Positions 637 to 50,704 are shown, counted from the first letter of the stretch. The stretch: DNA of 64,000 nucleotides from Candidatus Nanoarchaeia archaeon (GCA_041489925.1 JBGPSD010000002.1:55449-119448), one strand, 5' to 3'. Notes: generated by a model from the letters alone, not told the origin. Program-made: numbers and translations.

Positions 637-659
637 AACTGGTTTTCAATGGGCAAGTA

Positions 660-667
660 TTTATATA
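660..667 (+). promoter_or_regulatory. TATA-box-like element (tttatata) about 26 bp upstream of the prepilin peptidase start
   Basis: AT-rich octamer centred about -26 from the ATG at 690, the spacing expected for an archaeal promoter. Confidence 0.4.
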
Positions 668-689
668 TGTTCTGAACGAAAAGGGAATC

Positions 690-8757: not shown

Positions 8758-8792
8758 AACTGCCCCCTATTGCATGGTCTTTTTAAAATTAG

Positions 8793-8921: not shown

Positions 8922-8960
8922 AGTCTCAAATAGAATTAGGGGCTTTAAAAATGATTTGTT

Positions 8961-23882: not shown

Positions 23883-24090
23883 TTTTTTATTGCCCCCATA
23901 GCCCCCGAAGGAGCAAGGGGGCAGTCCTCTTGTATTCCAAGGGATTCAGAGAGTAAAGTGAATGGAATTAAAGGCAGTTTTGCTGAAAAAACAGAAGATT
24001 TTCCGGCGAAGTTGCAAGGATTTCCGGTCTGGCGGGAAGAATTTTCAGAAAAAGCAGTAAAAAAAGAAAAATTTCCGGATTAGCCGGAAT

Positions 24091-24699
24091 TTAGTCCTTG
24101 ACCCATCTTAGGTATGCGACAGGGCTTGCAGCCAGCACCCCATAATCAGGGTTGGCAAGCACAAATACTGCGCCAAAGTCAGTTCCTGATGCCTGCCCTG
24201 CAATGTAATAATCAGGGGCGTAGCCGCGGGCAAAGCTTATTTTGTTGTTGGTGTATGAAAGCGGCACTTGTTCGCAGCTCAGGGGCGCTTCAGGGACTTT
24301 GTACGCATAAGTGCAAAGGTATCCGCCGACATACTTTGTCGGGTCCTGCTCGTAATAGCCGGCTATGCCTGAGAATGTGTGTATCTTTTCCTTTTTCAGC
24401 GATATGAAATTGTAGAAATTCATCTCAGGAATTGCAATGCGGTCCACCTGGAAGCCAATAAGTTCTGGAGCAAGCGCGGCTCTTGGAGGGAGATTTTCAG
24501 GGTAATAATCCATCTGGTTTATTCTGATTGATTCCAGCGAGGGATAATTTATGGACGCTGTCTTGAATGTCAATCCCATGTTGTACGGCTCATATGTGCC
24601 GATATAAGCGCCTGTTATTGAGCGGTAGCCCATAAAGAGCATAAGCACCAATGCAACTATGCTTACAATTCCCAAAATGAATATTTCAATTTTGTCCAT
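24091..24699 (-). CDS. membrane-anchored hypothetical protein (last gene of the surface-system cluster)
   Basis: N-terminal TM anchor; overlaps the upstream gene by 14 nt. Confidence 0.5.
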   Translation of the reverse strand: MDKIEIFILGIVSIVALVLMLFMGYRSITGAYIGTYEPYNMGLTFKTASINYPSLESIRINQMDYYPENLPPRAALAPELIGFQVDRIAIPEMNFYNFISLKKEKIHTFSGIAGYYEQDPTKYVGGYLCTYAYKVPEAPLSCEQVPLSYTNNKISFARGYAPDYYIAGQASGTDFGAVFVLANPDYGVLAASPVAYLRWVKD

Positions 24700-25501
24700 G
24701 GCTCATCACCTTGTGCACAGCGGTTATCCAGAGGGTGCGCGTCCACGCGATTGCAGGGAGCGCAACAAGCAGCGCGAATACAGGAATGAGGTAAACGCTT
24801 ATCCTGATGAGGAAAAATGGGATTGTAATTGATAATGCGAGCACAATTGTCCCAAGCACGTGCGCAGGAAGCATTTCTTTCCATTGCGTTATTCCAAGCG
24901 TGAATGTCTGCCTGAAAACATTGTGGGGAACAAGCGCATAAGAGATGAAAACAAAGTATGAATACACCCAGAAAATTATTGCGACGATTACGTTTGCTGT
25001 TTTTGTGCTGAAAAGCGGCAAAGCGCCCATTAGCGCATAATCAATTATGTTCATCGCGATGATTGTGAGAACTAAAAAGCCTGCAAACCAGAACAGTGTC
25101 ATTCCAATGAACTTGGTCGCGAACAGTTTTGTGTCAACAGGCTTTTCTTTCGCGCTTTTGTGCGCCAAAAACCATACACTGCCCTTGCAGACAATCCACG
25201 AAAGCAGTATTCCTGCAAAGAAAAACCCAATGAACTTCAGCAGCTGGCGGTAAGCAGCTGTAAACTCATCTGACTGCAGTACAGCAGGCGGCTCAAGGGT
25301 GTTTGCATCAGCAAGAGCCTGCGCCTGTTCGCCAAGCATTGTCGTCAGTGTCTGCGAATACTCATTTGCCCTGTTCAACAGCGCATAATTCATCTGGTTT
25401 ACAGAAATAAGGAACACAAGGTCAATAACAACAGCCATCACCATAAGCCATTTGTGTGAAACAAACGCATTCCATGATTTGGTTATTGTTGAAAAGGTCA
25501 T
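24686..25501 (-). CDS. polytopic membrane protein (module 2), distant paralog of 33429..34310
   Basis: Six or seven TM helices; local similarity VCKGSVWFLAHK versus ISRGFIWLTLLNK. Confidence 0.55.
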   Translation of the reverse strand: MTFSTITKSWNAFVSHKWLMVMAVVIDLVFLISVNQMNYALLNRANEYSQTLTTMLGEQAQALADANTLEPPAVLQSDEFTAAYRQLLKFIGFFFAGILLSWIVCKGSVWFLAHKSAKEKPVDTKLFATKFIGMTLFWFAGFLVLTIIAMNIIDYALMGALPLFSTKTANVIVAIIFWVYSYFVFISYALVPHNVFRQTFTLGITQWKEMLPAHVLGTIVLALSITIPFFLIRISVYLIPVFALLVALPAIAWTRTLWITAVHKVMSHGQN

Positions 25502-25505
25502 TTTA

Positions 25506-28500
25506 TTAAGTTGTGGCGGTGCCTGTTGGGCAACATCTCTGGCCGTTCGTGCAGTCTGTTGGACCTAAATCTTCAATTGGGCAAGTATCTTGGCAGGTCC
25601 CGTATCCTTTACACGTTGTCGTTCCTGCTGGTGTCGAGCTCTTCACCTGATTTATCGTTGCAGTGTACATGCTCTGTGCTTCTTTGAGCTTTGCCGTGAC
25701 ATTGAGTATCTTTTCGTTTGCAAGATCAACGTCAAATTGGCTGCTTTTGTTCATGTCAATCATTGTTTGCTTTACTCCGCCGACATAGTTGCTGACTGCC
25801 TGCATTGCTGTTTGCGCGTCTGTAAACATTGCTTTGTTTGCAGGGTCTGAAAGCATCCCTATCTGGCGGCTGAATTCTGTTATTGCAGCATCATTGCCTG
25901 TCTTGAGAGCGTCCATCTGGACAATGTAGCCGCTGACACGCGCTGCAACTTTTGTCCTGTCGCCTGATTCTGACGCGGGTATTTCAACAAGCCGTTCATT
26001 ATAATTGTTAATAGTTTTAACCTGCATTTCAAGGAAGTAAGCCAGCGATGGAAGCAAAGTAGTATCTTTTGCGCTGATAACAACAGGCTTCTTGCAGCAG
26101 GTGCTTGGGCAGTCAGATGAGCCTGTAATGACGCCTTCCTTGCAGTCGCTCTGCTTTTCCTTGCATTCGCCATTCAGGTCTGCGCAGGCTTTCTTTACCT
26201 GCGCCGGAGTTGTGCACTGCACCTTGAAGTTCACAGATGTTTGCTGCTGCGCCCCATTTTCAGGGTCTGTGCTGACCTGGTTTGTGGGATTGCCCTGCCT
26301 GTCTGCGTCATAGATTGTGAATAGCGCGGTCCAGGTAACAGGTGTGTTTGGATTGCATGCCTGCGTTGCTGCTGCAGCGGATTTTGGCGGCGCGTAAGTC
26401 ACAAGCACCTGCAGTGCCTGAACCTGGAACACCATCCTGTCAAACTCAATTACTCCTGCGACATCATTCCTTCCTGACTTGAATGTGAATGGCGCTGTGT
26501 TTTTCAGCTGGCCAGCTGTCTGCTTGCCCGAGTATATCGGGGTGCTGCCGACTTTAAAGCTAAGCCAGCCGTCTCTTGCGTTTGGCTCGGGGTTTGTGGC
26601 TGCAGGGTTTATCTGCCAAATCTCATAGGTTGATTCTGCAGGGTTTGCACCGTAATTGGGGAAGTTGATGAGGAACTTGTATGTGCCTTGCGATAGTGCT
26701 CCGCCTTCCATCAGGGTCATTGTTGTGACATACGGCTTCAAGGTGTCAACTCCCCAGGTCCTTTGCTGGATTCCTGTCCTTGAAGGCCCTGTTGCCGAAT
26801 GCCTCTTTATAGTGTCCTCGTTGACCTCGAATTTGGCAAGCGGAGAGAAGTCAGTCTCTCCATTAGGCACTGTAAACCTGAAAACTCCGTTAGTGCTGAG
26901 TGTGTATTTCTGGCTCGTGTCTTCGTTTGATGTCTGCAATGGCATCTGCCTTTCATCTGTGAGCAGCCCGTCAACAACATTGCCTGCTGCGTCCTTTATC
27001 TGGTATGTGAGGAACTTCTTTCCAATATTCTGCGACCTCCTGTCTTCAGGGTATGCCTGCTGGAGCTCAAGGCTGAATTTGAGCGGGTCTTTGAGTGCGA
27101 AAACATCCTGCTTTTCAGGATAGACTGGATTTGCGGTCCGTATCCTGATTCCGTTTTCCTGCTCGCCGAACATGCACCTGAACTTTCCGCTGAACGCTTC
27201 AAGCGCGCAGAATGCAGGCGCCTGGCCGCTCAGTGTCTCGCGGATTGAGCAGTCCACCTGGCCTGTGCGCGACTGCCTTGTTGTTGAGTCTGTCCAGTCC
27301 CATGAAAGCACAGCAGTGTCATATCTGTAGCCTGCTGAGTCATAAGCTGTCTGCGGGCTTACAACAAATGGTGAGTCAAAGTTGACCATATCATACTTCT
27401 TTGCCATTCCGTTGCCAAGCTCTGGAGTGCTGACAGGCAGTTCCTGTGTCTTTGCCTGGCAGTCGCACTTGCCGTCAGGGTTTGTCCTTGGGTCGCAGCT
27501 GAATCCAGCGCTGCATTTGAGTGTGAGCCTGTATCTTACGTCCGCGCCTGCAATCAGTCCGCCTGCAATCCTGTATGCCCAGGTTGTGAGTCCTGTCGGG
27601 CTTGTTGTCGGGTCATAGCTGATGAATGTGCGCTCGCAGGTTGTCAATGCCCCTTCTGTGTCAAGCGGGATTTCATTTACCTGCTGCTGGAACAATCCCT
27701 GCATGTTAAGGTCCCATGTGCCTGTGAATGCCCAGATGCAGATTGCGTGGACAAGCTTTCTCTCGCTGAATAGTGATTGGAATGGTCCTGCTGAGCCATA
27801 GCGCTCAGTTACGCTCCTGCTTACTGCTGTTCCTGCGCCTGTGAGCGATCCAAGGACGCTTCCAAAGCCGCCTCCTGCATCCACGCGGCCGCCCACTCCT
27901 GGCGAGTTGAACTTCTGTGTTATGCATGAGATTGCCTCAAATAGCAGGTCGCAGATTGTTCCTGAAAGCTTTGCTGCGCAGAAGCCCTCGCTTCCTTCTC
28001 CTGTCAGTAATATTCTTTGGAAGCAGCCGTAAAACGCGCCAAGCACTGAGCGCCACATTTGCAGGTATCCAACGATTGCAGGCAGGCAGACGCATTCAAT
28101 GCTTCTCAAAAGCCCTGAAGTCGGCCTGACAATATACTGTTGTTCAGACACTCCCACGATTTCATTCACTGAGTTGTATGCTGCCCTTATGTTGCCGTCT
28201 TTCTGGCAGGGGTCAATTCCGTAGCCTGATTTTGTTTTTCCGAGGCACAGTGCAGTGTGCAGGCATTCAACACCGGTGTCTTCTGTTGATTTCTCAGTTG
28301 TCTTTGTTTTTGAAGCGCCTGTTGCAGGTGTTTGCCCAAAGCAGTTCGAGACATCTGTTTCCAGAACCGCAGTAAGCCCTTGTGACAGCCTTAACTGCTG
28401 GTCCTTGTTGACTCCTGCCTCTGTCACTGTCATCTTCTCAAATTGAGGAGTCCTTGCGGCATAGCCTGCATACACTTTGTATTGCCTTTCTGCTGCGCCT

Positions 28501-31460
28501 GTTGGCGATGTAGGTGCCAGGCCTGATGGGATTGCGAAAAGGAACACGTCATTGTTGTCAGCGCCAGGTCTTGCAGGCGTGGGACCTTTCCAGTATGCCT
28601 CAAGCCTGACAGTCCGTGGTGTTGGCTCTCCTGCATTGCTTTCACAGAAGCCTGCAACAGAATTCCACAGCACATTGCAGCCCAAGCCGCTTGTATCAGC
28701 GTTTGCCTGCTGTGCTGACAGGCAGGTGCTTTGCTTCAGTTCGTCAAATGTGTCAAGGCTTCCGCCCATTGCTGTTCCAGGACCGCACGCAGAGCTCCAG
28801 TCCTTCTGGTACTGGATGCCGCAGCAGTTCGGGTGCGCAGGGTGGAGCATTTTCTTGCAGTCATCTGGCTTTGGTCCATTGGGGAATGTCTTCGGAGCGT
28901 CTTTTCCTTTTGCAATGTTGTATATTTCAAGTATGCCCACCCTGTTGAACGTCAGCGATGATGTCTTCGGTGAAACAAATTGTCCTTGCTCTTCAGTTAT
29001 GCGCTTTGCAGTCTCAATATCCTGTGCAGTGCTGACCGTTGCAGTGTACTTGCCGCCTCCATACGTCGGCGTTATGAAATTAAAGTCTGAATATGTGAAT
29101 GCGCAGTCATTGCCTGAGTAAATCAGCCCTCCGCCCTGTGTTCCGCCTGCTCCGCCCACCTGCCATTTTGCAAGCTCAGGGTTGCTGGTGATCATACTGG
29201 GTTCAATTTCAAGCGGTTCTGCCTTGCCAGTCTGCTGCTTGATGTAGTATGTGAGTGTTGGCGCGCTTGGACAGCCAATGCGGTCGCAGAGACCGTGCAT
29301 CACATCCATCTCAAACTTCTTCCTTGATTCCATCTTGCTCTGACAGGCATAGCACTTTTTCTGCTTGTCCTGGTCATTGTTGCCGCTGTAAACTTCCTTG
29401 CACAGCCCTGCGTCTGCAACTGCCTTGCTCCAGGTTCCGCCTGTGACAACAGACAGTGCCTGGCTTCCCTCGCAGGCCATCTGCTCTGTGAAGAATTGGA
29501 AATACATCCAGACAGTGCTCGCGAGGCAGCCGTAAAGCACGTATTCGCTGATTGTTGTCAGCGGCTTGAGCACCTTGTCAATGTAGCTGATTACCCTGCC
29601 AATCACTTTCACCGCAGCCTTTAGCAGCCCTTTTGGAATTATGTCTGTGGGAATTGTCATGTCTATCGCGACTTCAACAGGCATGCACACTTTTTGCACG
29701 CGCTTCTCAATCTTTGGCGTGACAATCGGCCTGCTCGGGTCAGTGGGCGCAATAACAATGCTTTGCTGGAATGTGATTTCCATCTGTAGGAATATCTTGG
29801 CGCATCCAACACCTGGCACAAGGCATTCTCCCTTGCGGTGGTCTGACAGCGCCCTTTCTTTCTCATTAGGCCCTGCATTTGGATTTTCAGGCAGGGGGTC
29901 AACGTTTTCAAACTGTATCTGGACATATCCTGTGTAGTTCTTTGTGGTCTTTTTTCCTGCGTAATTGCTTACCTGCACCCAGTTGTGGTCAAACTCTTTC
30001 TCAGCTCCTGGCGCGAGCAGTATTGGGCGCACTGTGACAATTGGAGGCGCGGTTGTGGGCTCTCTGCCGATGTAATTGAGTGTGAACGGTATTCCTATCT
30101 GCTGGACTCCCTGTATCATCAGGCGCGGCAGCAAAATGCTTGGCATTGCCTCTCCCACATTTGCCTCCCAGTATGTTCCTGAGCCGCAAAGCAGGAAGTC
30201 AACGTCAGTCGGTCCAAAGCTTGCCTTGTTGCCTGCGAGGTCAACTGCTTCAAGCCTTATCTTGTTTGCCCAGCCCTCTCCAGCCTCAATACTTGTTCTT
30301 GTCGTCCCTTTCTTTATCCTGATTGTTGCCCTTAGCTTGGTCTTTATTGAGAATGAGCCGTCAGCTTCTGTAACCTCGTACTCTGCAGGCTTTGCCTCGT
30401 CATTGATGTAAACAAACACTGTTGCCTGCTCGTCAAGTTTGCCCTTGATTGTGATGTCAGGGATGTATGACGGGCTGAGCTTGTCAAGGTTTGTCTCGAG
30501 GAACTTTGGCCCTGCATTGTCCATCTTTACTGTCTGCTTGATTATTTCCTGGTTTCCTGCCGCATCCTCAAAGATGAGTTCAACATCATTCAGCCCCTGC
30601 GCGAGAGGCAGGGTAATTGAGAACGGACTTCCTGCAGTTGTTGTCTGATAAGGAGTCTCACAGCTCATGTTGATTTCTGGCGGGGCAGCTGATGAAGCAT
30701 TTGCTCCGCCTTTTGTTGTGGCGACTGCGAGGTCTGCGGAAGTTCCGATATTGCAGCTTGTGTCAACTGGCGCAATGCCGTAGCTGTAAGTGACCCCTGA
30801 CTGAAGGTTGATGTCATTATAGCTGGGCAGTGATGATGTTGCAATGCGCCTTCCATTGCGCTTGACAAGGTATTCTTTCAAGTCAGTTGCCGTGCTCGGG
30901 TCCCACACCAGCTCAATTGAATTCTCTGCAATCTTGTTTGCCTTGAGCCCTGCCAGGATGTCAGGCGGTGTTGTGTCTGTCTTCTGGACAACCCTGTATT
31001 TTATCGTGACTTTTTCATTGACATCCCCTGAGATTGTGATGCTGCTTTCCCTTGTTGCTGCAGGGATTTCAGTCGCGAGCTTCACTGCAGGCGGGATTGA
31101 GTCATACAGGACTTTGAATTCCTTTGCTGTCCCTCCTGTGTTGCCTTCAAATGCCTGCAGCTTGACTGTGTTTTCTCCCTGGCTCAGCCCAATGCTTGCG
31201 AATTTGAACTTTCCATCTGAGCCTGCAGGACCAACCCTTGTCCTTACTTCATTGACGAAAACCTGGACACTTGCTGCTGGCTTTGTCCTTCCCTCTATTG
31301 TTATTGTTCCGCTGCGGGAGAATGCAGGCAGGCTTGCTTCAATGTCAAGCGTGCCCATTGGCGCTGAGCCTTCAACAACCCGGCCTGTGAACATGTTGGC
31401 TGTCGCTACCGGAAGCATCACCATGAGCATTGCCAGGGTGATGGACAGGAGCTTATTCAA
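25506..31460 (-). CDS. giant secreted surface protein (1984 aa) with a fibronectin-III-like domain and Cys-rich modules
   Basis: Sec signal peptide MNKLLSITLAMLMVMLPVATA; FN3-like ENSIELVWDPSTATDLKEYLV; many CxxC/Cys-knot-like stretches; C-terminal region similar to the 1036-aa protein. Confidence 0.7.
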   Translation of the reverse strand: MNKLLSITLAMLMVMLPVATANMFTGRVVEGSAPMGTLDIEASLPAFSRSGTITIEGRTKPAASVQVFVNEVRTRVGPAGSDGKFKFASIGLSQGENTVKLQAFEGNTGGTAKEFKVLYDSIPPAVKLATEIPAATRESSITISGDVNEKVTIKYRVVQKTDTTPPDILAGLKANKIAENSIELVWDPSTATDLKEYLVKRNGRRIATSSLPSYNDINLQSGVTYSYGIAPVDTSCNIGTSADLAVATTKGGANASSAAPPEINMSCETPYQTTTAGSPFSITLPLAQGLNDVELIFEDAAGNQEIIKQTVKMDNAGPKFLETNLDKLSPSYIPDITIKGKLDEQATVFVYINDEAKPAEYEVTEADGSFSIKTKLRATIRIKKGTTRTSIEAGEGWANKIRLEAVDLAGNKASFGPTDVDFLLCGSGTYWEANVGEAMPSILLPRLMIQGVQQIGIPFTLNYIGREPTTAPPIVTVRPILLAPGAEKEFDHNWVQVSNYAGKKTTKNYTGYVQIQFENVDPLPENPNAGPNEKERALSDHRKGECLVPGVGCAKIFLQMEITFQQSIVIAPTDPSRPIVTPKIEKRVQKVCMPVEVAIDMTIPTDIIPKGLLKAAVKVIGRVISYIDKVLKPLTTISEYVLYGCLASTVWMYFQFFTEQMACEGSQALSVVTGGTWSKAVADAGLCKEVYSGNNDQDKQKKCYACQSKMESRKKFEMDVMHGLCDRIGCPSAPTLTYYIKQQTGKAEPLEIEPSMITSNPELAKWQVGGAGGTQGGGLIYSGNDCAFTYSDFNFITPTYGGGKYTATVSTAQDIETAKRITEEQGQFVSPKTSSLTFNRVGILEIYNIAKGKDAPKTFPNGPKPDDCKKMLHPAHPNCCGIQYQKDWSSACGPGTAMGGSLDTFDELKQSTCLSAQQANADTSGLGCNVLWNSVAGFCESNAGEPTPRTVRLEAYWKGPTPARPGADNNDVFLFAIPSGLAPTSPTGAAERQYKVYAGYAARTPQFEKMTVTEAGVNKDQQLRLSQGLTAVLETDVSNCFGQTPATGASKTKTTEKSTEDTGVECLHTALCLGKTKSGYGIDPCQKDGNIRAAYNSVNEIVGVSEQQYIVRPTSGLLRSIECVCLPAIVGYLQMWRSVLGAFYGCFQRILLTGEGSEGFCAAKLSGTICDLLFEAISCITQKFNSPGVGGRVDAGGGFGSVLGSLTGAGTAVSRSVTERYGSAGPFQSLFSERKLVHAICIWAFTGTWDLNMQGLFQQQVNEIPLDTEGALTTCERTFISYDPTTSPTGLTTWAYRIAGGLIAGADVRYRLTLKCSAGFSCDPRTNPDGKCDCQAKTQELPVSTPELGNGMAKKYDMVNFDSPFVVSPQTAYDSAGYRYDTAVLSWDWTDSTTRQSRTGQVDCSIRETLSGQAPAFCALEAFSGKFRCMFGEQENGIRIRTANPVYPEKQDVFALKDPLKFSLELQQAYPEDRRSQNIGKKFLTYQIKDAAGNVVDGLLTDERQMPLQTSNEDTSQKYTLSTNGVFRFTVPNGETDFSPLAKFEVNEDTIKRHSATGPSRTGIQQRTWGVDTLKPYVTTMTLMEGGALSQGTYKFLINFPNYGANPAESTYEIWQINPAATNPEPNARDGWLSFKVGSTPIYSGKQTAGQLKNTAPFTFKSGRNDVAGVIEFDRMVFQVQALQVLVTYAPPKSAAAATQACNPNTPVTWTALFTIYDADRQGNPTNQVSTDPENGAQQQTSVNFKVQCTTPAQVKKACADLNGECKEKQSDCKEGVITGSSDCPSTCCKKPVVISAKDTTLLPSLAYFLEMQVKTINNYNERLVEIPASESGDRTKVAARVSGYIVQMDALKTGNDAAITEFSRQIGMLSDPANKAMFTDAQTAMQAVSNYVGGVKQTMIDMNKSSQFDVDLANEKILNVTAKLKEAQSMYTATINQVKSSTPAGTTTCKGYGTCQDTCPIEDLGPTDCTNGQRCCPTGTATT

Positions 31461-33432
31461 ATTCCGGCTGAAGTGTTTCGCGATATTCTCCCTCCATTAC
31501 ATATGACATCATCTTGAGCTTTTGGTCATCTGTGATTGACAATGGCAGGTATTGCACAAGCGGGATAACTGCTGTTGTCTTTCCTGCGATTGTGTCATAA
31601 GGTATCTTGTATGTCTGGACATTGTATCCGCCAACCTGGTTGTCGCGCAGGAACAGCATTGCGTCAATGTCATAATAAGACGTGTCCTGCACGATCTGGA
31701 ATGACTCATTTGTTGTGGGGAAGCCGACAAACTGGTCAAATGTCCTGTTGACAAGGCTTACCTGCACTGAGACGCGCTCATTCTCTGTCAGCGGCCTTGG
31801 TGTTCCCCATGTGTCTGTCTCGCCGTGGTACGGGTGGACAATGTACTTGAGCTGCATGTCCTGCAGTTTTTTCATCGGTATGTCAATCCTGTCAGTGAGC
31901 ATCTGCATTGTGGTTTCAAGGTATCCTTCCTTTTTCGCTGTTATGAACGGGTTTGTGCATCCCCTTGGCAGGTATGTTGCAAGCGCGTACACTCCCTCTT
32001 CTGCCATTGTGCTTCCGAGCTCGCATTCCTGGTCAAAGCACTTGTATGTTATCTGGACATCAGGCATTTCCATCATTATGCCTGTCCCTTCCACAACACC
32101 GAGCGCCCTGATGTCCGCAGGCTTGTCGCCGAATGTTGTGCAGAAGTCAGGCGCTCCAAAGTCCATTGTCTGGAACCTTCTCAGCCCAAATGCAACTCTT
32201 TCAGGCATGTTATGGTTGATTAGCACAGGGAACGCGAACTGGAAAACATATCCCTGCCCATTGAACGCAGTGTCATCCCTTACTGATGCCTTGACGTAAT
32301 AAATTACGTCATAGGTGAAGTGCCACTGGTTTATGCACAGGAAGCGCAGGAACTTGCCAACTCCCTTTCCTGAGTTTGATTTCAATTGCGGGCCGTCGCT
32401 TGGCTGCGCATTTATCTGCATTCCCCACGCAGGCTGGTATTCAAAGCCCACCTTCAGGTCAGTCGGCTTGGCGCCAACGTCATAGAAGAACTTGAAGTAC
32501 TGGTATGCGTCATCAGGTGCCTCTGTCTTTGGCGGTGTTATTTCCTGTCCTTGCTCAAGCTCTTTTGTCATACGCAAATAATCCTTGTGCAAAGTTTCGT
32601 ATGTGCTTTGGCTTGCTGTGAACGGGAAAAAGTTCGTGTTCTTGATTCTTGTTGTCGGAATGTTATAGTATAACAGCTGTTCAAGCCTGCTCTGCACGTC
32701 TGTGATGCGCCAGTGCTTTGTTCCGCACTCAATTGTCAATCCGTCCAGCGGGATGTTTTCGCTGTCTGCAGCCATGAGGTCAATCGTGGCATTTTCAAAG
32801 TATGTGAACTCGTTTTCCTTTGCCATTGTTGCATTGGCAAGCTCCCACATCTGCTTCAGGCGCACAGGCATCCTGAATACAAAGTCCTTGATTCGCTTTG
32901 TGCCTTCTGTGCCACCAAAGGAGAGCGCCAATGGCCAGGAGATTCTCAAAATCACACTGTCATCTGCTATCATTGTTGTTGTGCTGACATTGCCTTCCTC
33001 GGTTATACTCATCCTGTCCTTGAAAGGCTCAAAGCTTCCTGCGCAGTCCTTTAATCCTGAGTTGATGTGCCTTGAGATTTCCCTTTCCATGAAGCCAAGG
33101 CTTGGAGTCCTGTCCTCGCCTTCGTAATACCACAAAGGCACCTTGAAGTAATTTTCAGAGTCTATCGGGATGTATGCAGTCGGCGTGCGCTCAATTATTC
33201 CAGGCAGCTGTATGAATCCTCCCTGCAGTCCTAACAATCCAATTCCTTCCATCGCAAGGCTATTGACACAGCTCTGGACATAGTCATACACAGGCTTGAC
33301 ATCCTCAGGGACAATCACTTCTTCCTCAATCGGCTTGACAGCCCTTTCAGTGGTCAGGTAAACAACTATTCCAACGCTGACAAGCAGTATCAGCCCTATT
33401 ATTATGAACAGTGTTATCTGCCCTCTTTTCAT
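31453..33432 (-). CDS. large pilin-like protein with a class III signal peptide (659 aa), module 2
   Basis: MKRGQITLFIIIGLILLVSVGIVVY: KRG then Q at +1, the EppA-type pilin signature; paralog of 38768..40927. Confidence 0.65.
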   Translation of the reverse strand: MKRGQITLFIIIGLILLVSVGIVVYLTTERAVKPIEEEVIVPEDVKPVYDYVQSCVNSLAMEGIGLLGLQGGFIQLPGIIERTPTAYIPIDSENYFKVPLWYYEGEDRTPSLGFMEREISRHINSGLKDCAGSFEPFKDRMSITEEGNVSTTTMIADDSVILRISWPLALSFGGTEGTKRIKDFVFRMPVRLKQMWELANATMAKENEFTYFENATIDLMAADSENIPLDGLTIECGTKHWRITDVQSRLEQLLYYNIPTTRIKNTNFFPFTASQSTYETLHKDYLRMTKELEQGQEITPPKTEAPDDAYQYFKFFYDVGAKPTDLKVGFEYQPAWGMQINAQPSDGPQLKSNSGKGVGKFLRFLCINQWHFTYDVIYYVKASVRDDTAFNGQGYVFQFAFPVLINHNMPERVAFGLRRFQTMDFGAPDFCTTFGDKPADIRALGVVEGTGIMMEMPDVQITYKCFDQECELGSTMAEEGVYALATYLPRGCTNPFITAKKEGYLETTMQMLTDRIDIPMKKLQDMQLKYIVHPYHGETDTWGTPRPLTENERVSVQVSLVNRTFDQFVGFPTTNESFQIVQDTSYYDIDAMLFLRDNQVGGYNVQTYKIPYDTIAGKTTAVIPLVQYLPLSITDDQKLKMMSYVMEGEYRETLQPEFE

Positions 33433-34310
33433 GCTATTTTCCTCAATATATTTCTCATATATATTCTATACCATGCCATGAATGCGAAAAAGATTATGAA
33501 TGCAGTTGCAAGCATCAGGTTTCCTGAAACTATAAGCAATACCTGGCTTAACAGCACATAGACAATAAAAATATAGCAGTATGGAATCACAAATGCCTTG
33601 AACTTTCCTATGCCTGTGCTGAATGCCTCTGCCATTGCCTTTCCAAATGCGCGGTTCTTTGTGTAAGAATAATGCAGTGCTGCTGTGAGATGGGTGTAAA
33701 GCAGCATCATCGCGATGAAAACATAAGCAGCGGGTTTTGTGCTCATTGATACCACGAAAAACATTCCGAGCACAATCCACGCAGTGCACCAGGCAAGGTT
33801 GAGCAGGCTGAATCTCGCAAAGAACGGCAAGTGCACAGGCTTGTTAAGCAAAGTGAGCCAGATGAACCCTCTTGAGATGGTGTATGCGACGAGTATCAGC
33901 AGCCAGAATGCAATTAATACGATTATTGCCTTTGTGAAAAACGCGCCAAGTATGTTGTTATACATCTCAAGGTTTTCAGCGCCCAGCTTTGCGCCTGCTG
34001 CGACAGGGATTTGGCTCAGCGGCTGCACAACAGCCATAAGCACGCGGTACAATGCGTATCCTAACAGCGCGATTGCAACGCAGAACACTGCGTCATAGAA
34101 CATCACCCATGCAAATTCTGTTTTCAGCTTGAATGTTTCCAGCAAATTCTTGAATTGCTTTTTCGAATGTTCCTTTGGCGCGAGCAAAAGGATTAATCCA
34201 ATGATTGCGAGCAATGCTATCTGCGCAAATCCTGTTTTTTTGTAAATCAGGATTCCTGCGATTATTAAAATTAGTCCGATTATCCGCGGTATTGTTACCA
34301 GCTGTTTCAT
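33429..34310 (-). CDS. polytopic membrane protein (module 1)
   Basis: Eight or nine TM helices; 4-nt overlaps on both sides. Confidence 0.55.
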   Translation of the reverse strand: MKQLVTIPRIIGLILIIAGILIYKKTGFAQIALLAIIGLILLLAPKEHSKKQFKNLLETFKLKTEFAWVMFYDAVFCVAIALLGYALYRVLMAVVQPLSQIPVAAGAKLGAENLEMYNNILGAFFTKAIIVLIAFWLLILVAYTISRGFIWLTLLNKPVHLPFFARFSLLNLAWCTAWIVLGMFFVVSMSTKPAAYVFIAMMLLYTHLTAALHYSYTKNRAFGKAMAEAFSTGIGKFKAFVIPYCYIFIVYVLLSQVLLIVSGNLMLATAFIIFFAFMAWYRIYMRNILRKIA

Positions 34311-35710
34311 ATGCTTGCCCCTGGTGTTGTTGGTGCTGCAGGCGTTGTTGCTCCTGGCTGTGCGGCAGTTTCAGTTCCTGTTGTGACAGCGTATGGCATT
34401 GTCGCTGCCCCTGCATATTGCGTTATTGAATTGCAGATGCTTCCTGTCCTCCTGCCGCCAAAGGCTTCAAGGCTTGGGCTGAATGAGAGGCAGACTGATG
34501 TGTAATCAGTCGGGGATAGTTTCATCAGCGCAGACGCTCCGACTGCTGCGAAAGTGTTTCCTTCGCCAATCTCCTGGTCTGCTGCCCACCAGGCTGCCTT
34601 TTTTTCTGCTGACTGGAAGTAAACATTGATTTTTAGTGTTTCATCGAGCGGGTTTGTGACAGAGAACGTGACTTTGTAAACCCATGATGTCTGGCTCGGA
34701 GTCACAATCGGCAATGAGCGCTCCCCTTCAATGTGCGCCGCAACCGCTGGCAAACCACCGACAGGCGCAGTGAAAAGCACGCCATCCTGCGGCGGGGTTA
34801 TTTCGGTGTAAATGCCGCAAACTGTTGAAGTCCAGCAATCGCGCGAAAGCGGCAAATATCCAAGAACCTTATTGCAGAAAATATCATTGACCCTGTTCCT
34901 CCAGTTTGCGAGGAATTCCTTGTCAAATATCAGCGAAGAATATCCCTGCAGTCCTGAATAAATACGGTAGGATTGGACGAAGTTGCCAAGCCTGTCGCCC
35001 CAGCTGTATTCTACAGTGCCTGTTGCAGACTCTTCTGCTGCTTGCTGCATGTCACGCCAGGTTTCAGCGTCGCTGTCTTGGAGTTGCTTAATCTGCGCCT
35101 CTGTGAGCTCCACTGGCTCGCCCATTTCATCCGTTGTCAGGTAAGTAAACTGGTTATTTCCGTTATAAATTATGCGCACATTGTTGATATCAAGCTGTGC
35201 TGCTCCTTGACCTCCGGCACCGCCTGCTGCTCCAACGGCTGCTGGAACTTCTCCTGGTGCCGGTGCTCCCTCTCCTGCTTCAGTAACTTGTTGTGACGGT
35301 GTTACTTCTTCTCCTGGTGCCTGTGCTCCTTCTTCCTTTAACAGTGCGGCATTACTGCTTTCGATATTTTCTCTAGTGGCGATTTGTGCAGGTTGAGAAA
35401 CAGTGGGTAAAACTATTTCATCAGGCAACTGCATTCCTGACCTCACTTGCACATATCGCCCAACTATTTCTGGGGGCAATTTCGTAATCTCTTCCTGGGC
35501 AAGTACTCTGCCTTGTTCTCCGGGTGGCGCGTAATATATCGCAGTTGATGCATAATCGCCTTCTGTTTGTGTGATTTTGATATATCTTGTATCAATATTG
35601 TCTGCCGCAACCACCGCGCTCGCGCTAACCAAAATCAGCATGATTGCAATTATTGCGAGTTTACGCATTTGTTTCACTCTCGTAATCGTCAACTGCGTCT
35701 TCGAAGTCAT
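34307..35710 (-). CDS. secreted protein (467 aa) with an Ala/Gly/Pro-rich linker
   Basis: Signal peptide MRKLAIIAIMLILVSASAVVAADN; low-complexity APGEEVTPSQQVTEAGEGAPAPGEVPAAVGAAGGAGGQGAA. Confidence 0.55.
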   Translation of the reverse strand: MTSKTQLTITRVKQMRKLAIIAIMLILVSASAVVAADNIDTRYIKITQTEGDYASTAIYYAPPGEQGRVLAQEEITKLPPEIVGRYVQVRSGMQLPDEIVLPTVSQPAQIATRENIESSNAALLKEEGAQAPGEEVTPSQQVTEAGEGAPAPGEVPAAVGAAGGAGGQGAAQLDINNVRIIYNGNNQFTYLTTDEMGEPVELTEAQIKQLQDSDAETWRDMQQAAEESATGTVEYSWGDRLGNFVQSYRIYSGLQGYSSLIFDKEFLANWRNRVNDIFCNKVLGYLPLSRDCWTSTVCGIYTEITPPQDGVLFTAPVGGLPAVAAHIEGERSLPIVTPSQTSWVYKVTFSVTNPLDETLKINVYFQSAEKKAAWWAADQEIGEGNTFAAVGASALMKLSPTDYTSVCLSFSPSLEAFGGRRTGSICNSITQYAGAATMPYAVTTGTETAAQPGATTPAAPTTPGASI

Positions 35711-38700
35711 TGCACGCGTTTTGGTTTACTGAGCCGAAGTCTGAGGCAGTCTTGAAGTTCTGTATGTCCTGTATTGTCTTGCCGAGCTGGGATGCAATTG
35801 CAAGCCCTGCGCATAGCCAGTAAGGCACGCCAGTCCCTTGTCCGCAGTCTTTCCCGCATATCAGCCCAGCGATTGCTCCGATAATCGCGAGCGGGTTAGA
35901 GAGTATGTTCTGCAGCATGTTAAGATAATAGTTGACAAGCGGCGCGAATGGAATGAGGTTGAAAATCTCGCCAAGGACAAAGCGGCATTCAAGGTAGTGC
36001 TTCTGGTCCCTGCAGTAGCTCGCAGGCAGCCCGTTTTCGCGCACATCTGTCAGCAGGCAGTTTCCATACTGGCACTGTATCTGCCTCCACTTGTCAAGAT
36101 TGTAAATTATTCCAGGAACGCATAATGGCGGGACTACAATACTGAAAATAAGGCTGTCTTTGACATTAAGGTAAGTGCTCGGGTCCTGCGCTCCTGTTCC
36201 TGCGCCCCCAATCAGGCTGCTGCTTCCAAGCCCTGTGGACATCCATTTATTCCATTCTGTGCCAGCCCCTTCTGCGCCTCCCACGCCTGCTATGCTAAGC
36301 ATGTCCATCAGTCCCCTCTGGCATGTTATGAAGTCGCAGAACTTTTGCACATATGAGAGTATTCCGTCATCCTTGTCGACCGCTATGCGTAGCTTATCTC
36401 CTATGTTGCAAACATTGCTGGATGTTTGCTTAAGAGCCTCTCCAGGTGCTTTTGTAAATGGTATGTTCGACAGAACCTCTCCTAGTATTCCTGTGACAAG
36501 TTGAATCATTGTAAGCAATGCGACTATGTTCATCAGTATGTTCAGTATCTGGCAGATTTTCTCAGCATAGCCCATGAATTTCTGCAGCTCGCCGATTACT
36601 TTCCAGACACCTGAGATGCTTTCCTTGACCTCATCAATATTATCATCCATGTTGTTGTACAGTTCGCCAACAGGGAGGTTGTAGAATTGCAGGGTGACAG
36701 TCACATTGTCGTGCTCAAAGTTCTGGGGGATAAAGTTGCCAACGCGCGTGAGGATTGAGACAGGGCAGCTGAAATTAAGCTCGTTGATTGTATAATCAGT
36801 CGGAGCAAGCGTCATCACCATGTACGGCTCGACGCTGCCTGCGTAATTGTTCTCAATGCTCATTGTGCTTATGTAGTCTGTCTGCCCTGAGCACTCGTCA
36901 ATGCCAGGAGCCTGCATTGTCACCAATGAAGCCTTGTCATTTGTTGACGCCAGCTTTATGCGGCAGTAAACAGGGTGCTCATACACAGACAAAGTGCTCC
37001 TGTCAAGCATTGTTGGCGAGCATTCTGTTGAAAGCGTCCAGTAGTTTGGCTCTGTTTCATTGCCTATGCCGAGGATAAAGAGCTCAGATGTGGTTATCGT
37101 GACTGAATTTCCTGCCAAATCGCTGAATGTAAACGTGATGTTTGTCGGCTGGGGCCCTGAGACCTCGTTTGTGTATGAGAATGTGCATCTCTTTGTGGTG
37201 TTGCCAAGGCACCTTTCAGCAGGTGTTTCCTTGTCTCCTCCAATGTCGCGCAGGTCTGCGACAACAGTGTTGAAGCCTGCTCCCTCAACGACAAACTCAA
37301 GTGTTTCGCCAAGCGAGGTGAAATTTGTCTTTACGCGCTGTTCTGCCCTGAATGCTGCGATTTCAACAATTCGAACTCCCTCTGGCGCAGTCTTGTCAAA
37401 TGTCAGGTTCAACTGCATTGTCTTTGTGACCTGGTTGTTGAGATTGTCACGCGTTGTGGGCATGATCTTTACAGAGTAATTTCCGCTGCTGGATGTCGGC
37501 CGAACCGCCCAGAAGCACTTCCAGGTTTCAGTTCCTGCCTTTTCGCACTTTTGCGCCTGCACTGATGCTCCAAGCCCAAGCGAACGAAGGTCAAGGAATG
37601 CCAAACCCTTGCTCATTCCTGCTCCTGCTTCCTTGAACTCTGCGAAAATCGTGCCATTGACTCCAAGCAATGATTTTCCTGTGTCGTCAACAAACTGCGT
37701 CCCCATTGCGGTTGGCTCAGGAGAAGTGTCATCAATGCTGATTGAGCACTGCAGCGTCTTGGAGTCCTTGCTGCCCATCAGGTCGCTTGCATTGACTGTC
37801 ACCTGGCACGTTGCGGGCGTTGTAATCGCGACATTTCTCCAGAAGAACCATTCGCCGTTCTGCCCCTCGCGGACCTTTCTTCCAAGCGTGGGGTTGAGCT
37901 TTGTCAGGTCAGCGTAAACTGTTGCGCCATTCACGTCGCTGTCAGCAATCTTGACGAAAACATCTGCGGTTACCTGCTGGTTTGTGCGCGCGTGAGTAAT
38001 CAGATACCCGTCTGCGTCGCGCAGCTCAAGCGCTTCAGGGGTTGGCTTGCGCGAGTCCATGAAGATATCTTTACACACCGGCGCACTCTTGTGGTTAAGG
38101 TAATCTGTTGCAACAGCGCATATCCTGACTTTTCCATTCCCTCCTGGCGGCGATGGCGGCGTGAATGTGAAAGTGCCGTTCTTTGCGCAGGCGCTTATGT
38201 CTCCTGCTATCAGCCCGACAGTTGTCAGGTTTGCGGTGATATTGATGAACTTTATTCCAGAGCATTCTGTCAGTTTTCCTGTTTCACTCCCATAATCCTC
38301 AGCCCTATACGTGACAGTTGTCGGCTTTGGCGCCATGCTCATGTTCGGGCTGAGGGTGAACACCAGGATTTTTGGCGCGATAAAGTCAACCGTGAGGTTT
38401 TTGTACGCGGTTTCAATTTCCTTGTTCTCTGCGTCAAAGAGCTTTATCGCGTAATGGTCTGTTCCTGCAAAAATCAGGTCTTGTGTCTTGTAAGTGCACT
38501 GCTGCATTGCCTGGGACTGTGCAGTGCAGCTGTCCATGAAGTAATAAGTGTCGCCGTAAAACACGCGCACCCTTTGTTTTGCAACATCAGGGGTGGGATT
38601 GCCAATCATCTGCGCAAGCACCTGCACTGTCAGCTCGTCATTCTCCCTTGCAAACCCGTTTACTCCGTCAGCTCCTGAGAATTTCTGGACTGTCATCTGC

Positions 38701-38771
38701 TGCGCAAAGCAGACAGGCAGCATTACAACAAGCCAAATCATTGACCATGCCGCGAATTCAAGCAGTTTCAT
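35661..38771 (-). CDS. giant secreted surface protein (1036 aa), module 1
   Basis: Sec signal MKLLEFAAWSMIWLVVMLPVCFAQQ; Ig-like beta-rich body; C-terminal hydrophobic and Cys-rich region similar to the 1984-aa protein. Confidence 0.65.
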   Translation of the reverse strand: MKLLEFAAWSMIWLVVMLPVCFAQQMTVQKFSGADGVNGFARENDELTVQVLAQMIGNPTPDVAKQRVRVFYGDTYYFMDSCTAQSQAMQQCTYKTQDLIFAGTDHYAIKLFDAENKEIETAYKNLTVDFIAPKILVFTLSPNMSMAPKPTTVTYRAEDYGSETGKLTECSGIKFINITANLTTVGLIAGDISACAKNGTFTFTPPSPPGGNGKVRICAVATDYLNHKSAPVCKDIFMDSRKPTPEALELRDADGYLITHARTNQQVTADVFVKIADSDVNGATVYADLTKLNPTLGRKVREGQNGEWFFWRNVAITTPATCQVTVNASDLMGSKDSKTLQCSISIDDTSPEPTAMGTQFVDDTGKSLLGVNGTIFAEFKEAGAGMSKGLAFLDLRSLGLGASVQAQKCEKAGTETWKCFWAVRPTSSSGNYSVKIMPTTRDNLNNQVTKTMQLNLTFDKTAPEGVRIVEIAAFRAEQRVKTNFTSLGETLEFVVEGAGFNTVVADLRDIGGDKETPAERCLGNTTKRCTFSYTNEVSGPQPTNITFTFSDLAGNSVTITTSELFILGIGNETEPNYWTLSTECSPTMLDRSTLSVYEHPVYCRIKLASTNDKASLVTMQAPGIDECSGQTDYISTMSIENNYAGSVEPYMVMTLAPTDYTINELNFSCPVSILTRVGNFIPQNFEHDNVTVTLQFYNLPVGELYNNMDDNIDEVKESISGVWKVIGELQKFMGYAEKICQILNILMNIVALLTMIQLVTGILGEVLSNIPFTKAPGEALKQTSSNVCNIGDKLRIAVDKDDGILSYVQKFCDFITCQRGLMDMLSIAGVGGAEGAGTEWNKWMSTGLGSSSLIGGAGTGAQDPSTYLNVKDSLIFSIVVPPLCVPGIIYNLDKWRQIQCQYGNCLLTDVRENGLPASYCRDQKHYLECRFVLGEIFNLIPFAPLVNYYLNMLQNILSNPLAIIGAIAGLICGKDCGQGTGVPYWLCAGLAIASQLGKTIQDIQNFKTASDFGSVNQNACNDFEDAVDDYESETNA

Positions 38772-40927
38772 GTCAGCACCGGCTTCAAAATGTCCTCGTA
38801 TTGCTCTGACACGCTGAACATTGTGCTTATCTGTTCAAGGTCTTCCACCACCCTTTGGGATTCTGGCAGAAGCTTGTCCAGCGCGAAGTTGATGTAGGTA
38901 AACTCAATATTTCGCGTGTTCTTAAGCTGTTCCTCTGTGATAGTCCAGTCATACTGTGCATAGCCCGATATGAGCGGCGTGTCCTTGCCAAACTGAATTG
39001 GTTGTGTCGGTACCCAATAGCACTTTCTATGACCATCAGTTTTGTAGCAGCGCCTTTGCTTGGGTATTGTCAGGTTCTTTGGCTGCGGGTAAAGGAAGCT
39101 GTAAATCGTGACAGTGTAATCGCCTGCAAACAGCGTCACGTTCTTTGATTCGTCAGACGGCGGGTCTCCGCAGGGTATTTTTGCCTTTTGCGAGGGCGCG
39201 CCGCAGACTGTTCCAAGCACGTTTACAGGCTCCTCCCATTCATTTACTTTCTTCTTTTCAAGCATTATTATTGTGTTTTCATACTTGCCCTGGTTCCAGA
39301 CCTGGGTGGTGTCCATCTCCCAGTTTATGCCGTATCTTCTTAGCATCCATTTCTTTACAGAGAAGTCAACAGGATAGCCGACTCCCATCACAAGGCTGGT
39401 TGATTGGTCGCTCTCGTCAGTTATGTCCATCTGCTGTATTGCGTTTGAGTAATCCCTGTGGGTTGCGGTCACAAATCCTCCAAGGCAGCGCGGGAACTTT
39501 GTCAACAGCTGGCCCTGCACTGTAGCGCCCATGTCGCAGACTTCCTTTCCGCACCTGTAGAGTATTTCAGCGCCGTCAACAGGAGCCCCTGCGCTTGTTG
39601 TGACATTTACAGTGATGTTTCCGCTTGTGCGCTGCTGTGGCGTGCACAGCAGTGTGCTCTGCTCCAAAATTGATGGGACAGCCAGCGTTGGCTCAAGCGC
39701 TGCAAGGGGCATGTTGTTCCTCATGTTTGCCTCGAGGAAATACCTGAAAGAATATCCTTCGCCGCCAAATGCCCCTGGCTGCTTTATTTCCACAAGCACA
39801 GGATAGCTGACGTCATATGCAAAGTTATACCTCCTGACTCCGAACAGGAATCCCCACGTGTTTGATATTCCCTCTGCCTGGCATATCTGGCCATTGCAGT
39901 TGAGGTCAGTGTATGGCTTCCACCACGGCAGGTAGACAAACCTTGCCTCAAGTGATTTGTGCTGTTCAAGGACAGGCACTGTGAATCCGCGGTTGTAAAG
40001 GACTTCATAGAACTTCCTGTCCTTGCCATTTGGCGCAGGAAGGTAGCGGTAATTCTTTGTGTAAGTCACCTTGAGCAGGGGGACATAGCTGGTTAGAATC
40101 TCGCTTATCTTCCGTTCGACATCAAACTTGGTCCACATTTTGCCCCTGCCAAAGCCGAATTCCATGTCTGAGACAGGCGGCAGGGCGTTTTCACTAAGCC
40201 TTGAGAATGTGTCAATAAGGGTCCTTGTCATTTGCTCAAGGAAGCTGTACTGCGCCTCGATGTTTGTTATGTTTGTCGCCAGGGAATAGATTTCATAGAA
40301 GCTTACAGGAAGCTCTGTCACATAGTCCTTTAGCTCAAACCTTTCCTCTCCGCGGGTAATCTCAAGAGGGTATGTCAGCATTACAATCACTGTTGCTGAA
40401 GTCATCTGGGTGTCAGGCTCAATCTCCCCTGTGGGCACAATGTTGTATTGCTGTTCCTTGAAATTTGCAAATTCGCCAAGGCAGTTTGGAAGCTTGTCTT
40501 TTATGTAGCGGTCCATCTGCGTTTTAATATTTTCAAGCGAAGGCCGCTCGCTGCTGAACTCGCAGTCGCCGACGCAGTTGTTCTTTGAGCTGAGGTGCCA
40601 CCAGTACGGGATTTTCAGTTCTGAATCAGGGGCAAACTGCACAGCGCGCCCTTCTGTCGGCTCTATCGGGTTGTAGCCCTGCCTTGGCTCAATGTATCCT
40701 CCGCGCTCGCCAAGCCTCTTGAGAGCTTCTTTCGCTGTTATTTTGAGGCAGTCCTGCACATAGTTGCGCAATGGCTGCATCTCTTCGGGAATTTTTGAAA
40801 CAACTGCCTCCTGCGCCTCAAGCGGTGCTATTGCCGCCTGCGAAGTTACGTAAAGGTATATGCCTATGCCGACCAGGAGAAGTAGCCCAATGATTATGAA
40901 AATAGTTATCTGCCCCTTTTTTGTCAT
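38768..40927 (-). CDS. large pilin-like protein with a class III signal peptide (719 aa), module 1
   Basis: MTKKGQITIFIIIGLLLLVGIGIYLYV; first gene of the cluster, preceded by a 147-bp AT-rich intergenic region with TATA-like elements. Confidence 0.65.
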   Translation of the reverse strand: MTKKGQITIFIIIGLLLLVGIGIYLYVTSQAAIAPLEAQEAVVSKIPEEMQPLRNYVQDCLKITAKEALKRLGERGGYIEPRQGYNPIEPTEGRAVQFAPDSELKIPYWWHLSSKNNCVGDCEFSSERPSLENIKTQMDRYIKDKLPNCLGEFANFKEQQYNIVPTGEIEPDTQMTSATVIVMLTYPLEITRGEERFELKDYVTELPVSFYEIYSLATNITNIEAQYSFLEQMTRTLIDTFSRLSENALPPVSDMEFGFGRGKMWTKFDVERKISEILTSYVPLLKVTYTKNYRYLPAPNGKDRKFYEVLYNRGFTVPVLEQHKSLEARFVYLPWWKPYTDLNCNGQICQAEGISNTWGFLFGVRRYNFAYDVSYPVLVEIKQPGAFGGEGYSFRYFLEANMRNNMPLAALEPTLAVPSILEQSTLLCTPQQRTSGNITVNVTTSAGAPVDGAEILYRCGKEVCDMGATVQGQLLTKFPRCLGGFVTATHRDYSNAIQQMDITDESDQSTSLVMGVGYPVDFSVKKWMLRRYGINWEMDTTQVWNQGKYENTIIMLEKKKVNEWEEPVNVLGTVCGAPSQKAKIPCGDPPSDESKNVTLFAGDYTVTIYSFLYPQPKNLTIPKQRRCYKTDGHRKCYWVPTQPIQFGKDTPLISGYAQYDWTITEEQLKNTRNIEFTYINFALDKLLPESQRVVEDLEQISTMFSVSEQYEDILKPVLT

Positions 40928-41074
40928 AGCAAACCCTTTTTTAATGCACTACTATTCTATGCACGAAAAAACCGCAGTTGGGTATATAAATTTAACTATA
41001 TTATATAGACGATAAATGTTACCTTCCAAGAATGACGATAAATATTTATATATGCCTGTCTGGAGTGTTGTTTT

Positions 41075-50703: not shown

Positions 50704-50704
50704 T

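Follow-up and report, generated by a model that had tools for sequence, protein, structure and literature searches.

The stretch of DNA analyzed here, called the window, covers 64,000 nt from Candidatus Nanoarchaeia archaeon (GCA_041489925.1, JBGPSD010000002.1:55449-119448), and all coordinates count from its first letter. It contains a cluster of eight minus-strand open reading frames (ORFs), whose coordinates and lengths matched exactly those of an earlier description made from the sequence alone (the original prediction). Genes g1 to g4 were assigned to module 1 and g5 to g8 to module 2. Both modules encode a P protein with a class III-type N-terminus (g1 and g5), a giant Sec-exported G protein (g2 and g6), and a polytopic M protein (g4 and g7). 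Related loci that were retrieved for comparison carry L-numbers. The genes and their boundaries are as follows.

38768..40927, minus strand: g1 (P1), 719 aa
35661..38771, minus strand: g2 (G1), 1036 aa
34307..35710, minus strand: g3, 467 aa, secreted accessory protein of module 1, probable start at 35668 (Met15)
33429..34310, minus strand: g4 (M1), 293 aa, polytopic membrane protein
31453..33432, minus strand: g5 (P2), 659 aa
25506..31460, minus strand: g6 (G2), 1984 aa, TTG start
24686..25501, minus strand: g7 (M2), 271 aa, membrane protein with six transmembrane (TM) segments
24091..24699, minus strand: g8, 202 aa, N-terminally anchored accessory protein of module 2
40928..41074, no strand assigned: AT-rich divergent intergenic region, 147 bp, with TATA-like runs
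24059..24089, minus strand: hairpin (ttccgg...ccggaa) followed by a T-run, directly 3' of the g8 stop codon, read from the sequence

The genes had been described as joined by overlaps of 4-14 nt. This held for most junctions: the overlaps are 4 nt for g1/g2, g3/g4, and g4/g5, 8 nt for g5/g6, and 14 nt for g7/g8. It did not hold for g6/g7, which are separated by a 4-nt gap, or for g2/g3, which overlap by 50 nt when g3 is read from its first ATG and by 8 nt when it is read from Met15. The latter start is probably the real one and gives g3 a normal Sec signal peptide. The overlaps between stop and start codons suggested that P, G, and M are made in fixed proportions. The intergenic region upstream of g1 has a GC (guanine plus cytosine) content of 30.6%, versus 49.4% in the cluster, and was AT-rich as predicted; a small plus-strand ORF starts at 41075, divergent from g1, and shares the same 147 bp. 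This region is likely the operon promoter, and the hairpin with its T-run likely marks the operon end, where it would act as a terminator. Layout and paralogy both supported the view of one co-directional operon with two copies of one module. The possibility that the cluster came from a mobile element or virus was considered and rejected because of its syntenic housekeeping flanks and zero PHROG matches.

The two modules were compared by BLASTP and by profile alignment with hhalign. Genes g1 and g5 are paralogs (BLASTP E = 2e-36 over 550 aa). Genes g4 and g7 are also paralogs (hhalign probability 98.7%, E = 4e-16, 229 columns), a relation that BLAST did not detect. Profile comparison found no relation of g3 with g8, or of either with P or G, beyond hydrophobic N-termini. 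For the G proteins, related C-terminal regions had been claimed. The two proteins are indeed related, in that the signal peptide and the first Ig-like domains (N-terminal ~190 aa) are common to g2 and g6 (hhalign probability 90.6%, E = 1e-6), but the relation does not run from C-terminus to C-terminus. A direct hhalign comparison of the g2 C-terminus with the g6 centre was not significant (probability 7%). Distant G proteins align both to g6 aa 1110-1218 (probability 72%) and to g2 aa 812-951 (probability 70%), with E of about 4e-5. The two alignments are collinear, with four Cys, Pro/Gly, Trp-Arg, and Gly in register. With moderate confidence, the Cys-rich helical region at the g2 C-terminus may thus correspond to the centre of g6, as judged through these intermediate sequences.

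A search for the same gene order in other archaeal metagenome-assembled genomes (MAGs), which had been suggested as a check, gave 63 species-representative loci, all from Woesearchaeota or Nanoarchaeia. The full g1-g8 order was present in ~18 retrieved loci (including L005, L007, L010, L018, L022, L023, L028, L043, L047, and L053) and recurs in many Woesearchaeota species, down to ~30-40% protein identity. In some genomes, module 2 is not directly preceded by module 1. In the most distant loci, L061-L069, the only unit is one P-G-M triad, and the genes around it are housekeeping genes such as those for SRP54 and ribosomal proteins. In these triads, P is class III-type, with 640-680 aa and ~10 Cys; G is Sec-exported, with 1,800-2,500 aa and 21-43 Cys; and M has 225-266 aa and six TM segments. 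Profile comparison showed their M proteins to be homologs of both g4 (probability 98.0%) and g7 (98.9%). These results indicated that the window operon is a tandem duplication of a P-G-M triad, to which g3 and g8 were added later. The ancestral unit, judged from these sequences, is a single P-G-M triad, a point that the original prediction had missed.

The homologs are named Woesearchaeota, Nanoarchaeia, or Nanobdellota, and the window itself contains archaeal markers, namely an NOG1 GTPase, tRNAs with probable introns, and an archaeal A24 peptidase. The source organism is thus an uncultured member of the Woesearchaeota (DPANN). Many public MAG records that contain the cluster, L007 among them, are titled "uncultured Methanosarcinales archaeon" or "Binatia bacterium". 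The taxonomy of those records is probably wrong, as gene content and homologs point to Woesearchaeota/Nanoarchaeia.

Selection on the cluster was estimated against L007, a relative with 93-95% nucleotide identity, from the ratio of nonsynonymous to synonymous substitution rates (dN/dS). All eight genes are under purifying selection, with ratios from 0.047 to 0.56. The values were 0.076 for g1 and 0.047 for g5, 0.23 for g2 and 0.26 for g6, 0.14 for g4 and 0.17 for g7, 0.28 for g8, and 0.56 for g3, the highest. The eight-gene cluster is not a chance arrangement, because its gene order is kept in many species and its dN/dS values are 0.05-0.56. The most conserved gene of the cluster is g5: its product is 72-75% identical where NOG1 is 61% identical, and 36-45% identical where NOG1 is ~50% identical. 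By these measures, the module evolves like a housekeeping machine, unlike a typical adhesin. It is lineage-wide, and both its spread and its degree of conservation had been missed by the original prediction.

The N-terminus of g1 reads MTKKG↓QITIFIIIG and that of g5 MKRG↓QITLFIIIG (the arrow marks the predicted cut), both of the class III type. Across 81 distinct homologs, the motif is [KR][KR][G/A]-Q-[IVL]-T-[IV]-F-I-I-[IL]-G. All 81 have K or R at position -2; at position -1, 62 have G and 19 have A, and 80 of the 81 have Q at +1. T occupies +3 in 74 homologs, F occupies +5 in 71, and 77 have G at +9, with ~20 hydrophobic residues after +1. The G or A at -1 and the Q at +1 are therefore kept, as expected if the class III N-termini of the original prediction are real and not ordinary Sec signal anchors. 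In ~1.3 Mb of related loci, the motif is confined to the P family. A profile search with this family found 8,790 representatives (50%-identity clusters) at E <= 1e-3 and 1,604 at E <= 1e-30, and the named members are all annotated "hypothetical". P1 and P2 had zero Pfam matches at E <= 1, as did 28 diverse P members at E <= 0.05; the class III and pilin N-terminal families PF04021 (Class_IIIsignal/DUF361) and PF07790 (Pilin_N) were unmatched at the same thresholds.

The structure of g1 was modeled with AlphaFold 2, with a mean predicted local distance difference test (pLDDT) score of 92. The model has a helix at aa 3-37 and a low-confidence linker at 33-47, followed by globular domains.

g1, aa ~48-420: alpha/beta
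g1, aa ~437-515: transthyretin-like beta-sandwich
g1, aa ~518-690: beta, followed by C-terminal helices

The sequence of the linker between the helix and the globular part is unconserved. This helix-linker-globular layout and the unconserved linker suggested that P is anchor-like, joined to an ectodomain, rather than a filament subunit. The predicted P structure gave no pilin-fold match in a structure search. Its match to SlaB (PDB 8qox) consists of generic beta-sandwiches (TM-score <= 0.17).

A prepilin peptidase had been placed near the start of the window, and the Pfam scan confirmed it.

600..1532, plus strand: A24 prepilin peptidase (Pfam Peptidase_A24, E = 2.6e-16, 60.4 bits versus a cut-off of 26.5)

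This enzyme is a candidate for processing P1 and P2 in trans.

The Pfam, NCBIfam, and PHROGs scans of all eight proteins returned only Ig-like, FN3, and Glucodextran_B domains, all of them in G; P and M had none. In g2 and g6, the Pfam matches were only Glucodextran_B, Big_3_3, and FN3, and no SLT domain was found in either. Sequence-profile searches of the P, G1, and G2 families against the PDB found FN3 in g6 only (aa 156-254), in agreement with the FN3-like modules predicted for the giant proteins. The domains of the two G proteins are arranged as follows.

g2: Sec signal; array of Ig-like beta domains, aa ~25-700; Cys-rich helical region, 700-1036; hydrophobic segment, ~738-768
g6: Sec signal; Ig-like and FN3 domains; central Cys-rich helical core, aa ~590-1260; beta-rich regions; variable C-terminal helical tail flanked by small Cys knots

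The structure model of g2 showed the Ig-like array and then an all-helical C-terminal region of low confidence (pLDDT 28-80). The hydrophobic segment (aa ~740-775) is consistent in g2-type proteins and only sometimes present in g6-type and distant G proteins. The positions at which the window differs from L007 cluster in g2 aa 751-870 and 951-1000, which are Gly-rich loops of the helical region, in g6 aa 801-850 and 1801-1984, and in g3 aa 1-250, while the Ig arrays, P, and M are nearly invariant. The variable segments of g2, g6, and g3 are candidate exposed, diversifying surfaces; neutral turnover of low-complexity sequence would be the alternative.

Some G homologs do contain enzymatic domains, which the original prediction had missed. 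Peptidoglycan hydrolase domains (SLT, amidase, or RlpA-like) were present on G in 4 of 8 single-triad loci. Local searches detected SLT with an intact ES...GL(I/M)Q at the same position (~aa 390-460) in L061, L064, L065, and L069. The G protein of L065 has SLT at aa 391-462 (E = 1.4e-9) and a C-terminal Amidase_3 (E = 2e-41), and that of L061 also has a C-terminal RlpA-like DPBB domain. When 21 G proteins were scanned with Pfam, SLT was found in three (best E = 2.6e-21), DPBB_1 (RlpA-like) in one (E = 2.3e-22), and Amidase_3 in one; apart from hydrolase domains, these homologs have only Ig, FN3, and TPR domains. G therefore looks like a conserved scaffold onto which wall-cutting modules were grafted in some lineages. 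On the basis of these grafted modules, we argue for an action on another cell's envelope.

In Woesearchaeota (AR20 and Lake A MAGs), a "large lytic murein transglycosylase" has been described as an isolated gene and read as a weapon against bacteria (PMC9723730, PMC12352652). Like it, the single-triad G proteins of L061, L064, L065, and L069 have SLT/GH23, and by synteny and core motif they are homologs of g2 and g6. That description did not include its P and M partners, the core common to the G proteins, or the duplicated version without hydrolases. The SLT-bearing giant gene is the only part of the module that is already in the literature; g2 and g6, which have no SLT, would be hydrolase-free paralogs or orthologs of its scaffold.

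M proteins have no catalytic signatures. Genes g4 and g7 and one distant M gave zero Pfam matches, and their size (225-293 aa) and ~6 TM segments are unlike the T2SSF architecture. Elsewhere in the window (49891-53089, minus strand), a large surface protein is likewise paired with a membrane protein. The former has 794 aa, five Bact_surface_Ig-like domains, and one HYR domain, and the latter, which comes next, is a polytopic SpoIIM-family protein of 270 aa. A relationship between M and this SpoIIM-like protein was considered and rejected (hhalign probability < 1%). Of the accessory proteins, g3 is hypervariable in its N-terminal half and conserved over its C-terminal ~200 aa, and g8 is present after g7 in ~27 loci.

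From these observations, we propose that P, G, and M form a lineage-wide surface complex, duplicated in this organism, which would contact the envelopes of other cells and breach them where G has hydrolases. We give this proposal roughly an even chance. The module appears to be specific to Woesearchaeota and related Nanoarchaeia and does not look like a classical pilus; of the possibilities raised by the original prediction, a surface tether or attachment apparatus remains the best reading. P would be made with a class III signal and cut by the A24 peptidase of the window after [KR][KR][G/A]. Its hydrophobic helix (Q-x-T-x-F-I-I-x-G...) would then remain as an anchor, either within the membrane or as part of a small, pilin-like bundle of helices, connected by the flexible linker to a large, highly conserved ectodomain. 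G would be exported via Sec, with the Ig/FN3 array at its N-terminal side, a conserved Cys-rich helical core, and hypervariable short loops and tails. M, with its six TM segments, is the probable membrane scaffold of the complex, and g3 and g8 would be accessory proteins gained in the clade of the window. The complex would hold the giant G at the archaeal surface for contact with another cell's envelope. In several single-module lineages, the murein-cutting domains of G may also breach bacterial walls, and the G proteins of the window may only bind.

Several points weigh against this proposal. Host-specific adhesins are not usually conserved as strongly as P, and conservation of this strength would suit a housekeeping envelope structure as well. 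The conserved N-terminal helix of P could instead reflect co-assembly with true pilins, and the predicted cleavage of P is read from its motif. The core homology among g2, g6, and distant G proteins is based on hhalign probabilities of ~70% plus synteny. The G proteins of the window have no hydrolase or known adhesin domain, so that a role in envelope contact is extrapolated to them from distant relatives. A physical link among P, G, and M is presumed; a candidate P-G fusion, in L014 (9810-17666, apparent 2,618 aa), was an artefact, as masked bases (X) span the junction.

A bolder version of the proposal is that P-G-M is the extracellular and membrane part of a dedicated, so far unrecognised machine that contacts and breaches the host envelope, present Woesearchaeota-wide and possibly in the wider Nanobdellota. 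We regard it as tentative and rather doubtful. In this machine, the P anchor and the M scaffold would deploy G, the Cys-rich hydrophobic core would engage the partner membrane, and the grafted modules (SLT, amidase, RlpA-like, and Ig arrays) would match the wall type of the partner. A described structure that resembles it is the attachment organelle of Nanobdellota, consisting of a cone, a portal, and a filament, whose proteins are explicitly stated to be unknown (PMC11420986, PMC11104419, bioRxiv 10.64898/2026.06.04.730037). It belongs to the same phylum-level group, and it is likewise an envelope-embedded host-contact device, with an extracellular filament or tube. A difference is that the organelle is known only from Nanobdellales with crenarchaeal hosts. 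In addition, the cone opens to the symbiont cytosol (bioRxiv 10.64898/2026.06.04.730037), whereas the P-G-M proteins are predicted to be mostly extracytoplasmic or membrane-embedded.

An unlikely alternative is that the cluster encodes the tip or priming complex of a true type IV pilus. P1 and P2 would then be minor modular pilins and G a PilY1-like tip adhesin, and the pili would be assembled from small pilins by an ATPase and a platform that are encoded elsewhere. The class III motif of P is kept far beyond the cleavage site, as in pilin alpha1 helices. Besides the A24 peptidase, the window encodes three small class III-like proteins, which are candidate true pilins of this organism.

4374-4865, plus strand: small class III-like protein, 163 aa, KRG↓ISPLIATVLLIV, no Pfam match
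44692-45297, minus strand: small class III-like protein, 201 aa, KKG↓LELPINMIVLLII, no Pfam match
47155-47784, minus strand: small class III-like protein, 209 aa, KKG↓ALELSITAIVVLII, no Pfam match

The 201-aa gene is paired with a gene for a 459-aa protein (45290-46669), and both are syntenic in L003. Next to the pilin-like gene at 4374-4865, and near the A24 peptidase, are the genes of two NosD/beta-helix proteins (219 and 281 aa; 4872-6427, minus strand), which adjoin each other.

Precedents for such a tip complex exist. Modular type IV pilins are known, for example PilB and PilC of Streptococcus sanguinis (PMC8179133), and large proteins in Methanococcus pilus loci have been compared with PilY1 (PMC4858521). 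Common to these systems and the cluster are a class III signal before a large module and the pairing of a pilin-like protein with a big Sec-exported protein. They differ in that P has no recognisable pilin globular fold, no genes for pilus assembly are near, the proteins are archaeal, and a partner with six TM segments stands in place of a PilC-type platform. By Pfam scans, G also has no vWA, beta-propeller, or DUF2341 domain, unlike PilY1/DUF2341-type adhesins.

The genomic context did not favor a pilus either. Of the features of type IV filaments, a class III signal (at the level of the motif) and an A24 peptidase are present, whereas no T2SSE assembly ATPase or T2SSF platform gene was found in the 64-kb window, which bears out the earlier statement that the cluster has neither. 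A scan for the T2SSE Walker motif within +/-10 kb was positive in 1 of 69 loci. In that locus, L059, a 369-aa PilT-like T2SSE ATPase (8109-9218, minus strand; Pfam E = 3.7e-46) is encoded on the strand opposite to P, ~0.7 kb upstream of it and separated from it by a single gene. The N-termini of the small proteins (G↓ISPLIATV and G↓LELPINMIV) differ from the P motif (GQITxFIIIG), which argues against co-assembly; the flexible, unconserved linker between the P helix and the globular domain is a further point against a pilin. Single triads are located among housekeeping genes, not pilus genes. With T2SSE near only one of the 69 loci, the pilus-tip adhesin of the original prediction found no contextual support.

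Quite improbable, in our estimation, is that the proteins make up a housekeeping S-layer-like coat with no role in cell contact, in which G would be the outer canopy, P the membrane stalk, as in SlaA/SlaB, and M an assembly factor. The lineage-wide occurrence of the module, probably as a single copy, beside housekeeping genes and under strong purifying selection would fit such a coat. So would the size of G and its richness in Ig-like domains, with 15 N-x-S/T sequons in g2. The SlaA/SlaB pair of Sulfolobales (PDB 8qox) likewise combines a membrane stalk with beta-sandwich domains and a co-transcribed, very large outer protein. However, the stalk is anchored there by a C-terminal TM segment, the opposite topology to the N-terminal class III helix of P, and class III processing is not known for S-layer stalks. 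The structural match of P to SlaB does not go beyond the generic beta-sandwiches mentioned above. S-layer proteins are usually Cys-poor and diverge unrecognisably at such depth, whereas P is 36-45% identical across the order and G proteins have 21-68 Cys. The proteins studied here also differ from SlaA/SlaB in having an M partner and, on homologs, hydrolases. The murein hydrolase domains of G homologs would be hard to explain in a coat protein, and two paralogous sets in one operon are a further point against a coat.

The least probable of the alternatives, very unlikely in our view, is an anchored scaffold for extracellular enzymes and nutrient scavenging, or for remodelling of the cell's own wall, in which G carries the modules, P and M retain it, and the P N-terminus is an uncleaved signal anchor. 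In its favor, the hydrolase modules are grafted onto G at variable positions, P cleavage is a prediction, and DPANN archaea depend on scavenging. Against it, a recognisable catalytic domain is absent from most G proteins, both of those in the window included, and what is conserved in G is the Cys-rich core, which is non-enzymatic. Nor would 81 homologs retain [KR][GA]Q-x-T-x-F-I-I-x-G if it were a plain signal anchor.

The cluster was also compared with other archaeal surface systems. The Sulfolobus bindosome consists of sugar-binding proteins with class III signals and is assembled by BasEF. Its components, like P, are large non-filament class III proteins that are thought to be held at the surface by their processed hydrophobic N-terminus. 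Unlike them, P has no SBP (substrate-binding protein) domain, no BasE/BasF-like ATPase/membrane pair is adjacent, and a giant partner is present. Homolog searches of the cluster proteins gave no hamus-named match (hami of Altiarchaeum), although the hamus sequence itself was not compared. A described Woesearchaeota cluster of pilin and giant proteins was not found in the literature. The family scans and the structure search gave no match to any described system, in line with the earlier failure to recognise one.

Other genes of the window were also annotated. A transglutaminase-like gene (cysteine protease fold; 23043-23882, minus strand) is located directly downstream of the operon and has its own upstream region; it is syntenic in the close relatives L006, L008, L010, L018, and L020, but not in distant ones. 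An 89-nt tRNA-Lys(CTT) (8090-8178, minus strand) and a second tRNA of 129 nt (8793-8921, minus strand), the latter found by Rfam and not by ARAGORN, probably both contain introns, as is typical of archaea. At 58822-61337 (minus strand), a gene for a CHASE2-adenylate/guanylate cyclase (559 aa) follows one for a FecR-domain protein (279 aa); the two form a sensory pair of bacterial type, here in the genome of a DPANN archaeon.

Few uncultured archaea are as widespread and diverse as the Woesearchaeota, which are the DPANN lineage with the greatest diversity and are assumed to live attached to other cells. We know of no attachment genes reported for them. The P-G-M module is a concrete candidate gene set for DPANN-host contact, built from three undescribed protein families. 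It would extend the prepilin-peptidase route to ~700-aa proteins that probably form no filaments, and in some lineages it contains the giant murein hydrolase that was earlier read as a sign of predation on bacteria. If the module were indeed part of a dedicated host-contact machine, it would provide the first gene candidates for how uncultured Woesearchaeota attach to and tap bacterial or archaeal hosts, and possibly a molecular handle on the attachment organelle of Nanobdellota.

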